Below, in pieces: positions 4,643 through 8,176 of a stretch of DNA of 36,917 bases (positions within the stretch are counted from its first letter, which is position 1; each line of letters starts with the position of its first letter). The notes beneath the pieces were generated by a model. That model ran no database searches, was not told the origin of the DNA, and was given only the letters and a program-made list of their open reading frames with translations. A program made the translations under genes and the position numbers. The stretch is taken from the NCBI GenBank assembly GCA_964625485.1, contig CAZVBK010000002.1, forward strand, positions 1 to 36,917, written 5' to 3'. This DNA is from an uncultured Candidatus Saccharibacteria bacterium. GTDB taxonomy: Bacteria > Patescibacteriota > Minisyncoccia > Phycocordibacterales > UBA9973.

Positions 4643-6340
4643 ATGGCAACATTTGACGAGACAAAACAAAATAAGCAACTCGATGACCTACACAGAACAG
4701 AAGAAGAAGAACTGGTGGCGATGCTAGCAGAAACAAAATTCAATTTACCGTACATAGACATCACTAAGGTCGGAGTAGACAACGAAGCCTTGCGATCTAT
4801 CGGTCAGACAGAAGCCCGAGAGAACCTCCTTGCGCCTTTCAAGCTTTCTGGAACCAATGTCCTCATCGCAATGCGATCTCCAACACCGGAGCTCATAGAA
4901 AAAATCACCGCAGAAATAACACCTCAAAAACTAACACCAATATTTTACATGGCTTCTATGAACAGCCTGAATAAAGTATGGGAAAGATACGAAGAGCTAT
5001 CTATGGCTGAAAACACCAAAATCGGGGGTATCGACATATCCATGGACGTGGTGAACGAAACAGCAAAAAACATCCACCAAATGGCGGACATTAAAAAATT
5101 AATCTCTGAATCTTTAGCTGAAAACCAAGTCCACCGCATCTCTAGAATACTAGAGGTTATCTTGGCAGGAGCTATAGCCATTAAGGCTTCCGACGTACAC
5201 ATAGAACCAGAGAAAGACACTAGCCGTTTGCGCATAAGACTAGACGGCGTTCTTCAAGATGTAATTTTTCTAGATACAAATATTTACAAACTCCTAAGCT
5301 CTAGAATCAAGCTCCTCTCTGGGGTCAAACTCAACTCTCAAACCTCTCAAGACGGACGATTTAGTATTATGGAAGGCGAAGATGAAATAAACATCCGTAC
5401 TTCCCTCATCCCTGGAGCTTACGGAGAGACCATAGTCATGAGAATCCTCGACCCAAAAGCTACCCGCATAGACCTAAAAGAAATAGGTATCGACCCTTTC
5501 TTGTACCAAATCGTAGAGAAAGAAATAATGAAACCAAACGGGATGATTTTAGTGACTGGTCCTACCGGCTCAGGTAAAACCACCACTTTGTACGCCTTTT
5601 TGAGTAAAATATATTCTACGGAAATAAACATAATAACCATCGAGGACCCTATCGAGTACCACCTAGACGGCATAACTCAAACCCAAACCAACGAAAAGAA
5701 AGACTATACCTTCGCAGAGGGTTTGCGTAGTGCCCTCCGCCAAGACCCTGATGTAATAATGGTCGGAGAAATCCGTGATGCCGATACTGCGAAAACAGCC
5801 GTGCAGGCCTCTCTTACTGGGCACCTTGTGCTATCAACACTCCACACCAACAACGCGGCAGGAACAATCCCCCGCCTGATAGACCTAGAGGTGAACCCTA
5901 AAATACTAGTCTCTGCTATATCCCTTTCTTTAGCTCAAAGACTTGTGAGGAAATTATGTCCTGTGTGTAAGCAAGAAACTGCTCCGACAGAAGAACAGAC
6001 CAAGACCATACAAATGGTTTTGGAAAGCATAAAAGCCGAAGGAAAAGATTTGAAAAATTATAATATAGACGCAAGTGCACCGATAAAAATGTTTAAGGCT
6101 GTGGGTTGCGATAGGTGTAACATGACTGGATACACTGGCCGTATCGGAATCTTTGAAGCCATCAAGACAGACGAAGCTATTGAAAAATTAATTTTAGAAA
6201 ATCCTAGCGAGCATGAAGTAAAGAAAGCTGCCCGAGCTCAGGGCATACTCTCCATGCGCCAAGACGGTATAGTGAAAATAATAACCGGAGTTACTTCTAT
6301 GGAAGAAGTACAGAGCGTCGTGGATCTAAATGAGGAGTAA
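4643..6340 (+). CDS. pilB: GspE/PilB-family secretion ATPase (type IV pilus assembly ATPase-like)
   Basis: Walker A GPTGSGKTTT, Asp box/Walker B DPDVIMVGEIRD, His box TGHLVLSTLHTN, tetracysteine CPVC...CDRC, and an N-terminal GSPII_E-N-like region. Confidence 0.88.
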   Translation: MATFDETKQNKQLDDLHRTEEEELVAMLAETKFNLPYIDITKVGVDNEALRSIGQTEARENLLAPFKLSGTNVLIAMRSPTPELIEKITAEITPQKLTPIFYMASMNSLNKVWERYEELSMAENTKIGGIDISMDVVNETAKNIHQMADIKKLISESLAENQVHRISRILEVILAGAIAIKASDVHIEPEKDTSRLRIRLDGVLQDVIFLDTNIYKLLSSRIKLLSGVKLNSQTSQDGRFSIMEGEDEINIRTSLIPGAYGETIVMRILDPKATRIDLKEIGIDPFLYQIVEKEIMKPNGMILVTGPTGSGKTTTLYAFLSKIYSTEINIITIEDPIEYHLDGITQTQTNEKKDYTFAEGLRSALRQDPDVIMVGEIRDADTAKTAVQASLTGHLVLSTLHTNNAAGTIPRLIDLEVNPKILVSAISLSLAQRLVRKLCPVCKQETAPTEEQTKTIQMVLESIKAEGKDLKNYNIDASAPIKMFKAVGCDRCNMTGYTGRIGIFEAIKTDEAIEKLILENPSEHEVKKAARAQGILSMRQDGIVKIITGVTSMEEVQSVVDLNEE

Positions 6341-6513
6341 TAGGAAGTGATAATAAAAAAACACTAATCTCTAAACAATCCTTTAAGGGCTAGGCCCCGA
6401 AAGTAACAAATTCTTATAGGATAGCACCAGTGAACTAATAAAAGTACCAAAGCGTCCTATGCAAATTTATATAACCAAAGGCTGATTGCTTAGAGATTAG
6501 TGTCTTCTTCCTA
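6341..6513. ncRNA. candidate structured RNA or MITE-like element closed by long inverted repeats
   Basis: ACACTAATCTCTAAACAATC (6361-6380) pairs with GATTGCTTAGAGATTAGTGT (6484-6503), 19 of 20 positions. The stem is extended by CTTT/AAAG (6381-6384/6477-6480) and by an outer TAGGAAG/CTTCCTA pair (6341-6347/6507-6513). Internal hairpins are GGGC-TAG-GCCC (6387-6397) and ATAGGA...TCCTAT (6416-6421/6455-6460). No ORF. Strand not determinable. Confidence 0.3.
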
Positions 6514-6580
6514 ACGAAAACATTAGAATGGGAGAGAAACCTCTTGAAATGTATTGTACTACCATTTGCGAGTTAGCAAA

Positions 6581-6589
6581 TGCTATAAT
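6581..6589 (+). promoter_or_regulatory. extended -10 (TGCTATAAT) upstream of ruvB, giving a ~70-nt leader that starts with a hairpin
   Basis: TGCTATAAT at 6581-6589. The predicted start, about 7 nt downstream, coincides with the 5-prime arm of the ATAGTGGT/ACCACTAT stem (6596-6603/6633-6640). ruvB ATG is at 6667. Confidence 0.35.
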
Positions 6590-6666
6590 GTGCATATAGT
6601 GGTGAATATCCTGTGAATAACTCACCAAACATACCACTATTAGAAGTATAGCATATTCTTACTGTA

Positions 6667-7695
6667 ATGTCAAGCACTACCCTCTCAAAATCGAATTCTC
6701 CCAATAATGACAAGGCTACTTTAGGAGTGGATTCTTTTTTGGATCAAACCCTCCGCCCAAACCGCTGGGACGAGTATATCGGCCAAAAACACATAAAAGA
6801 CAACGTTAAAATCCTGCTGAAGGCTGCGGAAGAGCGAGGACAAACCCCTGAACACATACTATTTTATGGCCCCCCAGGTCTAGGTAAGACAACTCTCGCC
6901 CATTTAATAGCCAAAGAAACAGGACGACAAATAAAAATAACTTCTGGGCCAGCAATAGAAAAGGTGGGAGACCTCGCTTCTATCCTTACCAACCTTGCTC
7001 CTGGAGATATTCTTTTCATCGACGAGATCCACCGACTAAATAAAATGGTGGAAGAGATACTCTACCCTGCTATGGAGTCAGGGGTTCTCGATATCATCAT
7101 CGGTAAGGGTCCTTCAGCTCGTACCATCCAGCTAGACTTGCCACCATTCACCATGATAGCCGCTACGACTCGCGTGGCAATGGTCTCCTCCCCTCTTCGC
7201 TCCAGATTTTCTGGTGGAGTGTTTCGACTAGAATTTTATTCCGACGAAGAGATAGGTGCTATCGTCAAACGCTCAAGCGCGCTTCTAAACACCGAGCTCG
7301 ATGATGGGGCTCTAAAAGAGATCGCTAAGCGAAGTCGTTTCACTCCCCGTATGGCCAACTACTTTTTGAAACGATGTCGTGACTACGCCCAGGTTCACAA
7401 GAAAAGTTTAGACAAAGAAACAGTAAAGAATGCCCTAGCTATGCTCTCGATAGATGAGATGGGTCTAAACGCTTCTGATAGAAAGTTCCTAGAGATACTA
7501 ATCGAAAAGTTCAACGGACGAGCTGTGGGACTAAAAACCTTAAGCGCTGCCCTAGGCGAAGAAGAGTCTACGCTTGAAGAAGTAGTCGAGCCGTACCTCA
7601 TCCAACTTGGACTCCTTGAACGAACTGTACGCGGAAGAGTGGCTACCCCGAAAGCCTATGTACATTTAGGCTTTGATTTACCTGAAGAAAAATAA
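6667..7695 (+). CDS. ruvB: Holliday junction branch migration helicase RuvB
   Basis: LRPNRWDEYIGQ, Walker A GPPGLGKTT, Walker B IDEIHRL, and the full-length family pattern. Confidence 0.96.
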   Translation: MSSTTLSKSNSPNNDKATLGVDSFLDQTLRPNRWDEYIGQKHIKDNVKILLKAAEERGQTPEHILFYGPPGLGKTTLAHLIAKETGRQIKITSGPAIEKVGDLASILTNLAPGDILFIDEIHRLNKMVEEILYPAMESGVLDIIIGKGPSARTIQLDLPPFTMIAATTRVAMVSSPLRSRFSGGVFRLEFYSDEEIGAIVKRSSALLNTELDDGALKEIAKRSRFTPRMANYFLKRCRDYAQVHKKSLDKETVKNALAMLSIDEMGLNASDRKFLEILIEKFNGRAVGLKTLSAALGEEESTLEEVVEPYLIQLGLLERTVRGRVATPKAYVHLGFDLPEEK

Positions 7696-7696
7696 A

Positions 7697-8176
7697 ATGA
7701 AAGTACTAGGAATAGACCCAGGATTTGAAAGATTAGGAATAGCAATTCTAGAAAAAGACAAAGTCACTCGAAAAGAAGTGGTGGTTCATTCAGAATGCTT
7801 CAAGACCTCTGCGAAATTAAAATTCGAAGAAAGGCTCGAGCTTATCGGCGCAAAAATTAAAGATATCATAAAAGAGCACGGGCCAGATGTGCTTTCTATT
7901 GAAACTCTTTTCCTGACCACCAACCACAAGACAGTCATGCATGTAGCGGAAGCTCGTGGGGTTGTTATATATGAAGGTATCGTCGGTGGTTTGAAAATTT
8001 TCGAGGCCTCCCCTCCTCAGATCAAAATGGCTATAACCTCGGACGGTCATGCTGACAAGAATCAAGTGATGAAAATGGTAAAGATGTTGGTAAAAATAGA
8101 TAACGACAAGAAATCCGACGACGAGCTCGACGCCATAGCTATAGCCCTCACGGCTTTTGCTCATCTTCGTGCTTAA
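7697..8176 (+). CDS. ruvC: crossover junction endodeoxyribonuclease RuvC
   Basis: MKVLGIDPGFERLGIAIL start (catalytic Asp) and C-terminal DELDAIAIAL. ATG 7697 lies 1 nt after the ruvB stop. The track start 7673 overlaps ruvB out of frame. Confidence 0.92.
   Translation: MKVLGIDPGFERLGIAILEKDKVTRKEVVVHSECFKTSAKLKFEERLELIGAKIKDIIKEHGPDVLSIETLFLTTNHKTVMHVAEARGVVIYEGIVGGLKIFEASPPQIKMAITSDGHADKNQVMKMVKMLVKIDNDKKSDDELDAIAIALTAFAHLRA

Follow-up and report, generated by a model that had tools for sequence, protein, structure and literature searches.

The inverted repeat found between a pilB-like gene and ruvB in an uncultured Candidatus Saccharibacteria bacterium is the closing stem of a single-copy gene for a structured RNA of about 160 nt, which is encoded on the minus strand with a core that runs from position 6510 to position 6352. 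Coordinates are those of the window, meaning the whole stretch of 36,917 nucleotides that was analysed. The RNA family is new, in the sense that it is without counterpart among described RNA families, and the explanation that best accounts for the locus, to which we attach a moderate degree of confidence, is that of a strand-assigned, single-copy RNA gene with transcription signals inferred from sequence, the product of which would act in trans and the transcription of which would antagonize that of ruvBC. According to Pfam, the genes follow one another as polA (minus strand), a PilB-like ATPase (plus), the RNA (minus), ruvB (plus), ruvC (plus) and tyrS (minus). The immediate setting of the RNA gene is as follows.

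4643-6340, plus strand: pilB-like T2SSE ATPase gene with an MshEN domain (Pfam), convergent with the RNA gene
6352-6510, minus strand: conserved core of the small RNA, 159 nt, with its 5' end at 6510 and its 3' end near 6352 (R1 score, BLAST)
6667-8176, plus strand: ruvB-ruvC operon (Pfam RuvB_N/RuvB_C and RuvC), divergent from the RNA gene, with ruvB at 6667-7695

The PilB-like ATPase adjacent to the RNA has an MshEN N-domain of the c-di-GMP-binding type, and is one of four or five T2SSE/PilB paralogues in this genome (the others lie on contigs C3, C5, C19 and C57).

Much of what an earlier note had described from the letters of this region proved accurate. The spacer between pilB and ruvB does extend over 326 nt (6341-6666), and the only ORFs that it holds are unconserved and no longer than 46 aa. 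A sequence check bore out the 19 of 20 complementary positions between 6361-6380 (ACACTAATCTCTAAACAATC) and 6484-6503 (GATTGCTTAGAGATTAGTGT), the sole exception being an A-C mismatch on the plus strand that reads as a G-U pair on the minus strand, and a repeat search lengthened the arms to 6355-6380 and 6484-6509 (26 nt, 88%). The two hairpins that had been pointed out inside the repeat are real as well: GGGC-TAG-GCCC, with CTTT/AAAG on its flanks, is helix P5 (6381-6403) of the fold described below, and ATAGGA...TCCTAT is helix P4 (6418-6458). An outer pairing that had been proposed between TAGGAAG (6341-6347) and CTTCCTA (6507-6513) is present in the window, but it is conserved in no relative; as it is unconserved and its left half lies past the U-tract, this pairing probably falls outside the RNA. 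Where the description erred was in reading the element on the plus strand, for both the G-U bias and the covariance model scores place the RNA on the minus strand.

The evidence for a minus-strand product is of several kinds. Folded as the minus strand, the element reaches -66.3 kcal/mol (z -7.6 against dinucleotide shuffles), as compared with -48.0 kcal/mol (z -5.0) for the plus strand, and none of 200 shuffles on either strand is as stable as the real fold. When read as the minus strand, the paired cells of the alignment of 35 congeners contain 365 G-U and 6 A-C combinations, and those of an alignment covering about 30 families contain 236 and 26, respectively. This excess of G-U over A-C indicates that selection acts on the folded minus-strand product. 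In the same vein, 97.9% of cells in the genus alignment are paired if read as the minus strand, versus 79.5% as the plus strand, and the covariance model built for the RNA (R1) gives the window 170.8 bits when applied to its minus strand and 48.5 bits when applied to its plus strand. BLAST conservation across all 36 congeners covers exactly the core at 6352-6510.

The consensus fold obtained with RNAalifold on the minus strand from 35 congeners comprises five helices and 56 pairs, of which 18 show compensatory changes within the genus. P1, P2, P3 and P5 meet in a tight four-way junction with linkers of 0-3 nt, and each helix is backed by double changes. From 5' to 3', the elements of the fold are the following.

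6484-6509, minus strand: 5' strand of P1, the 26-bp closing helix, with its inner half (...AAUCUCUAAGCAAUC) conserved in sequence
6473-6483, minus strand: P2, hairpin AGCC-UUU-GGUU, with no linker to P1, covarying between families
6464-6470, minus strand: 5' strand of P3 (7 bp), paired with 6406-6412
6418-6458, minus strand: P4 arm (consensus fold, conservation), with a variable tip at 6431-6446
6406-6412, minus strand: 3' strand of P3, paired with 6464-6470 (consensus fold, family-level covariation)
6381-6403, minus strand: P5 hairpin, with a conserved CUUU:AAAG base and a covarying top, with no linker to P1
6355-6380, minus strand: 3' strand of P1 (GAUUGUUUAGAGAUUAGUGU plus the U-run), including the G-U pair 6375/6489

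Beyond the genus, 32 sequences from about 30 families were aligned to the model, and although an alignment fitted in this way favours the structure, 93.1% of its cells are paired, versus 42-53% when the partners are slid by 1-3 columns, and double changes occur in 46 of the 56 pairs; none of 500 shuffles reaches any of these measures. The alignment of the 35 congeners, which was not fitted to the model, yields the same helices. At the family level, double changes affect 22 of the 26 pairs of P1, all nine pairs of P5 and all seven of P3, which is yet the weakest helix, with 79% of its cells paired. The G-U pair 6375/6489 of P1 is invariant across the genus. In P4, an invariant AGGA:UCCU helix leads through a 1x2 loop (C opposite UA) to a 7-bp helix, which terminates in an invariant tandem U-G/G-U wobble (UGG/CUG) and is capped by a tip that varies in both length and sequence. 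A single congener (G009, locus L038 on contig C48) is missing about 30 nt of the P4 arm, through either deletion or misassembly. Overall, the 15 innermost bp of P1 and the bases of P4 and P5 are conserved in sequence, in contrast to the four tips, all of which vary freely. We infer that this combination of conserved junction-proximal helices and variable tips, which cores that bind proteins or ligands usually display, may have the same meaning here.

A compact multi-helix junction with a conserved core and variable tips is also what is seen in four-way-junction aptamers, and an orphan aptamer or ribozyme that senses a ligand or performs catalysis on its own might thus be envisaged. We deem such a reading very improbable, as the RNA has no downstream gene on its strand to regulate, its P1 helix is far too stable for a switch and no Rfam riboswitch or ribozyme matches it. 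A riboswitch or cis-acting leader was rejected on similar grounds: what follows the RNA on its own strand is the 3' end of the convergent pilB, and the 26 bp of P1 are constitutively stable.

With regard to known RNA classes, the Rfam scan that the earlier note had recommended returned no match to Rfam 15 at the gathering score in the window. Permissive thresholds, applied to the window, the spacer and 20 relatives, produced only chance matches of snoRNA type that lie far below threshold, and we found nothing relevant to this RNA, and no description of it, in the literature searched on structured RNAs, 6S or SRP in CPR/Patescibacteria. Of the several identities put forward for the element, that of a novel structured RNA was the right one, since the Rfam, copy-number and covariation checks all agree with it. 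Two other candidates were also set aside. A bacterial Y RNA (YrlA) has no Rfam match here, and the neighbours at the locus are pilB-like, ruvB and ruvC; an RNase P RNA or tmRNA in disguise is discounted by the presence of both elsewhere in these genomes. As a separate matter, two RNase P RNA matches exceed the gathering score in the assembly (C41:4153-4505 and C29:1160-1605, with 116.8 and 106.3 bits, respectively), a pair that could stem from contamination, from a second strain or from a genuine duplication.

A 6S-like regulator had been among the options listed as well, in which case the RNA would bind the RNA polymerase holoenzyme, and several features lend this identity some appeal. At about 160-190 nt, the RNA has a rod-like overall shape made by two long arms, with a conserved centre and ends that vary; it is single-copy, with strong tandem promoters and a leader that would be processed; and no Rfam 6S RNA is found in this genome, either in the window at the gathering score or anywhere else in the assembly. 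We nonetheless regard this identity as improbable. The centre of the RNA is a closed, covariation-supported four-way junction with linkers of 0-3 nt instead of a large open bubble. The arms of 6S typically have bulges, of which the perfect A-form duplex of P1 is free. Nor do 6S models match positions 6200-6800 (at E-values up to 10) or the loci of 20 relatives (at E-values up to 1).

The distribution of the RNA gene is that of a fixed, single-copy locus rather than a mobile one. A single copy was detected in the 633,755-bp assembly and in each of 36 out of 36 congeners, with 77-90% identity. The only sign of duplication of the element is an extra 33-nt copy of the P1 5' arm in congener G026 (C5:23071-23103), which has 94% identity; the main RNA gene of that genome is about 500 bp away. 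A miniature inverted-repeat transposable element, which 20-26-bp terminal inverted repeats around some 100 bp might bring to mind and which the earlier note had entertained, can be dismissed for practical purposes. The copy-number check gives one copy per genome, at the same fixed syntenic position in the 36 congeners and in more than 100 families; there is no target-site duplication, and the interior covaries as an RNA.

Under strict filters, an order-wide search with R1 turned up the full-length RNA, as one copy each, in 114 of 151 genomes. When the ruvB locus of five complete genomes scored as negative was searched with the filters off, the RNA was present beside ruvB in four of them, and the fifth locus stops at a contig edge; hence, the misses at order level are a problem of sensitivity. 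In the other orders of the class, 17 of 24 ruvB-anchored loci have a full-length match that immediately precedes ruvB and reads away from it. A pattern built on the core sequence occurs in at least 114 species genomes, a count that is not exact given a chance expectation on the order of a hundred across all phyla, but the titles of these genomes are almost all Paceibacterota, Nomurabacteria, Taylorbacteria, Zambryskibacteria or Parcubacteria, and this near-exclusive restriction to Patescibacteria shows that the matches are real. Whole-genome searches with the covariance model are insensitive and missed positive controls, so that absences outside the order are not trustworthy, and their E-values, which derive from a shortened calibration, are rough.

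Conservation extends to the arrangement of the locus. The order ruvB, RNA, pilB, with the RNA opposite to both genes, is observed in 30 of 32 families, and the same disposition (pilB and ruvB reading in one direction and the RNA between them in the other) recurs in other orders of the class Paceibacteria. Among 29 ruvB loci from other classes of Patescibacteria, pilB is adjacent to ruvB in none, and three (L123, L134 and L131) carry a related RNA head-to-head with ruvB. The RNAs at L123 (1239-1367, minus strand) and L134 are smaller and that at L131 is larger, but all share an inner P1 of the type ACUGUAGRCAU, and a P4-like motif and an upstream TTGACA promoter are seen in L123 and L134. These RNAs probably belong to the same superfamily, and the existence of ruvB-linked relatives without pilB implies that the linkage to ruvB is older than that to pilB. 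A search for the RNA where ruvB is lost, made in a whole-genome mode that missed known positives, gave one match, in genome G353 (locus L166, contig C24); there the RNA is still next to pilB, and in place of the ruvB side stands a transposase-like ORF with which the contig ends. At two further loci with broken synteny (L074 and L067), the only neighbours are a LOG-family gene and a tRNA synthetase gene.

The spacer also contains a dense set of putative transcription signals, which are listed here in the direction of RNA synthesis.

6645-6673, minus strand: predicted distal promoter PA, with -35 TTGACA at 6673-6668, a 17-nt spacer and extended -10 TGCTATACT at 6653-6645
6612-6620, no strand assigned: DnaA-box-like 9-mer TGTGAATAA (8/9 of TGTGGATAA), between the facing promoters
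6581-6589, plus strand: predicted ruvB extended -10 TGCTATAAT, back-to-back with PB and face-to-face with PA
6553-6561, minus strand: proximal -10-like box PB, TAGTACAAT (genus consensus TAGTATAAT), with a predicted start near 6546
6511-6638, minus strand: predicted 5' leader of the primary transcript, derived from the promoter positions, of species-variable length
6350-6361, minus strand: U7 (6361-6355) plus AUUAU, a putative intrinsic-terminator tail read from the sequence directly after P1

In a promoter scan, PA matches the consensus at 11 of 12 positions and has the additional TG, with a predicted start near 6638. Its -35 overlaps the ruvB ATG (6667-6669) as TTGACAT. Under a strict pattern, PA is conserved in 28 of 36 congeners and 23 of 24 families, and the overlap with the start codon is kept in 13 of the 24. 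PB is found in 32 of the 36 congeners, 5-55 nt upstream of P1, and is put forward only as a candidate promoter because its -35 is weak. The ruvB -10 is present in 35 of 36 congeners, at a fixed distance of 36-37 nt from PB. As the predicted start of the ruvB promoter is near 6596 and the two promoters face each other, the transcripts from PA and from the ruvB promoter would overlap and collide, and between 6596 and 6638 the leader would be complementary to the predicted ruvB 5' UTR. With respect to the ruvB -10, PA is thus a convergent promoter that overlaps the unit it might regulate, in the genus as in the order, which is the configuration expected of cis-antisense control or transcriptional interference. 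The distance between PA and P1 ranges from 8 to 161 nt in other families, pointing to leaders that differ in length. At the DnaA-box-like site, most congeners carry TTATCAACA and/or TATCCACA, which suggests that ruvBC, the RNA or both may be under DnaA-linked control.

At the opposite end, the terminator tail lies at most 15 nt (10-15) from the pilB stop codon (6338-6340), and the run of six or seven A residues on the plus strand that corresponds to the U tract is conserved in all congeners. The notion of a long terminator-like insulator, also raised in the earlier note, captures a side role of P1 in this genus, and in this genus only. Many other families have no U-run after P1 and carry a separate small terminator hairpin instead, which makes the terminator role of P1 local to the genus; more generally, P1 looks like a helix for processing and stability. 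With respect to a simple intrinsic terminator in the genus itself, P1 plus U7 are there, but the "loop" that they close is a covarying structure of 100 nt, and the unit has putative promoters of its own.

These arrangements open the way to a reading in which the locus is mainly a cis module, with strong antisense transcription from PA colliding with or occluding the ruvBC promoter and the transcript being antisense also to any pilB read-through, in the manner of GadY at gadX-gadW and RnaG at icsA. As part of the same reading, the folded RNA would be chiefly a stable end-cap, terminator and insulator. This reading strikes us as unlikely. In its favour, PA combines its consensus extended -10 and its position over the ruvB start codon with the wide conservation reported above, PB and the ruvB -10 are held back-to-back at a fixed spacing, linkage to ruvB persists where linkage to pilB has been lost, and P1 and its U-run abut the pilB stop codon. 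However, neither interference nor termination requires a four-way junction, covariation in 46 of 56 pairs or motifs that are invariant across orders; the G-U bias speaks of selection on a folded minus-strand product; and in other families P1 is succeeded by a terminator of its own standing. Complementarity to the ruvB leader is not in excess of what physical overlap provides (mean z +0.3), and pairing in trans with that leader was likewise rejected for want of a signal.

Our preferred reading is that the RNA is a product in its own right. Transcription would proceed from PA, starting at about 6638, and perhaps also from PB, starting at about 6546, and would stop next to the pilB stop codon, at P1 and its U7 tract. 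The leader would then probably be trimmed at P1, RNase III being encoded in the genome. We rate as even or slightly less the odds that, once matured, the RNA is a stable, protein-binding molecule with a role in trans, be it as the scaffold of a ribonucleoprotein or as a decoy, in which case recognition would presumably take place through the sequence-conserved helices around the junction. Transcription from PA would run head-on into the ruvBC promoter, and the production of RNA and that of ruvBC mRNA would hence be mutually antagonistic, as facing promoters imply. The interlock of promoters, together with the end shared with pilB, would be enough to explain the frozen synteny of the locus. Two observations weigh against a trans-acting ribonucleoprotein. 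A perfect duplex of 26 bp is unusual for the RNA of a stable ribonucleoprotein and should be a substrate for RNase III, and synteny as strict as this could mean that the locus serves mainly to act in cis on ruvBC and pilB.

The nature of the neighbouring genes invites a more specific variant, by analogy, in which the RNA would be a four-way-junction decoy or cofactor for RuvA, RuvB or RuvC, or else an RNA cofactor of one of the flanking hexameric ATPases, in the way that pRNA serves the phi29 packaging ATPase. The junction is tight and has two long arms (the 26-bp P1 and P3-P4) and two short ones, the head-to-head linkage to ruvB-ruvC holds across classes, and RuvA is encoded elsewhere in the genome, so that the full machinery is present; the same location of ruvA at another locus led us to reject the RNA as a replacement for RuvA. 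What speaks for a junction decoy of Ruv proteins or ring ATPases is hence shape and neighbourhood, and we judge it quite improbable: as far as is known, RuvABC are specific for DNA, while RNA helices are A-form; the conserved internal motifs of P4 would be left unexplained; and interlocked promoters alone can account for the synteny. Were it true, the RNA would be a decoy for a recombination motor, much as 6S is for RNA polymerase, with its synthesis reciprocal to ruvBC expression.

The identification of the RNA as that of the signal recognition particle was also tried, and was attractive because no SRP RNA is otherwise found. It was rejected given that the apex of P4 is variable and that Ffh and FtsY were nowhere found. 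SRP RNA (RF00169) is detected neither in this genome nor in any of five complete congeners or 101 genomes of the order. The M domain of Ffh (PF02978) is likewise missing from 151 genomes of the class and 151 of the phylum; the SRP54 GTPase domain (PF00448) is represented in 81 genomes of the order by nothing more than P-loop fragments, and has no match in 151 of the phylum at 1e-10; and a tblastn search with E. coli Ffh returned nothing at E below 1 in this genome, with five complete congeners also negative. As controls, 14 reference genomes were included, of which 13-14 gave a positive result. If this pattern is real, Patescibacteria are altogether without Ffh, FtsY and SRP RNA, an absence that we did not find reported for Patescibacteria in any paper.

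Few RNAs beyond rRNA, tRNA, RNase P, tmRNA, SRP and 6S are kept in single copy across a whole bacterial class. Paceibacteria are the largest class of the CPR, with genomes of about 0.6 Mb from which almost everything dispensable has been discarded, and the fact that the RNA has been kept in a lineage that sheds dispensable genes suggests that it probably does something basic. The analysis quantifies the strand of the element, traces its apparent order-level absences to filter artefacts and describes the interlock of three putative promoters with DnaA-like boxes, and adds to these the ruvB-linked relatives without pilB outside the class and the undetectability of SRP proteins. It thus offers a handle on the biology of uncultivated CPR, in the form of a defined RNA, a promoter interlock with ruvBC and a set of candidate protein partners, and a caution for annotators, insofar as "inverted-repeat elements" in such genomes can be RNA genes on the opposite strand.

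Comparison with known systems places the RNA near several of them and within none. It resembles 6S RNA (SsrS; RF00013) in size, in being a stand-alone, single-copy gene with strong tandem promoters and a leader in need of trimming, and in setting two long arms around a conserved centre with variable ends; it departs from it in the lack of a model match, the closed four-way junction with two additional hairpins and the perfect duplex of P1. With SRP (4.5S) RNA it shares a small size, a universal-looking, single-copy gene and a long 5'/3' closing helix, but its apex is variable where that of SRP RNA is a conserved, GNRA-capped helix 8, and Ffh and FtsY are not found alongside it. The likeness to the phi29 pRNA (a long 5'/3' helix, a multi-helix junction and a gene beside that of a ring ATPase) is one of analogy, with no homology, phage context or sign of oligomerisation. 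Cis-encoded antisense RNAs such as GadY at gadX-gadW and RnaG at icsA, which work through RNase III processing or transcriptional interference, also lie on the opposite strand between genes of the same strand, with a promoter that faces that of the downstream gene and with a long duplex and RNase III available, but they are short and do not form class-wide covarying folds, whereas here the structure of the product is strongly selected. Finally, raiA, OLE, ROOL and HEARO are orphan classes of noncoding RNA that, like this one, are known only by their conservation and covariation and are restricted to particular lineages. The RNA described here differs from them in matching nothing in Rfam 15, in its restriction to the Patescibacteria and in being interlocked with ruvB.
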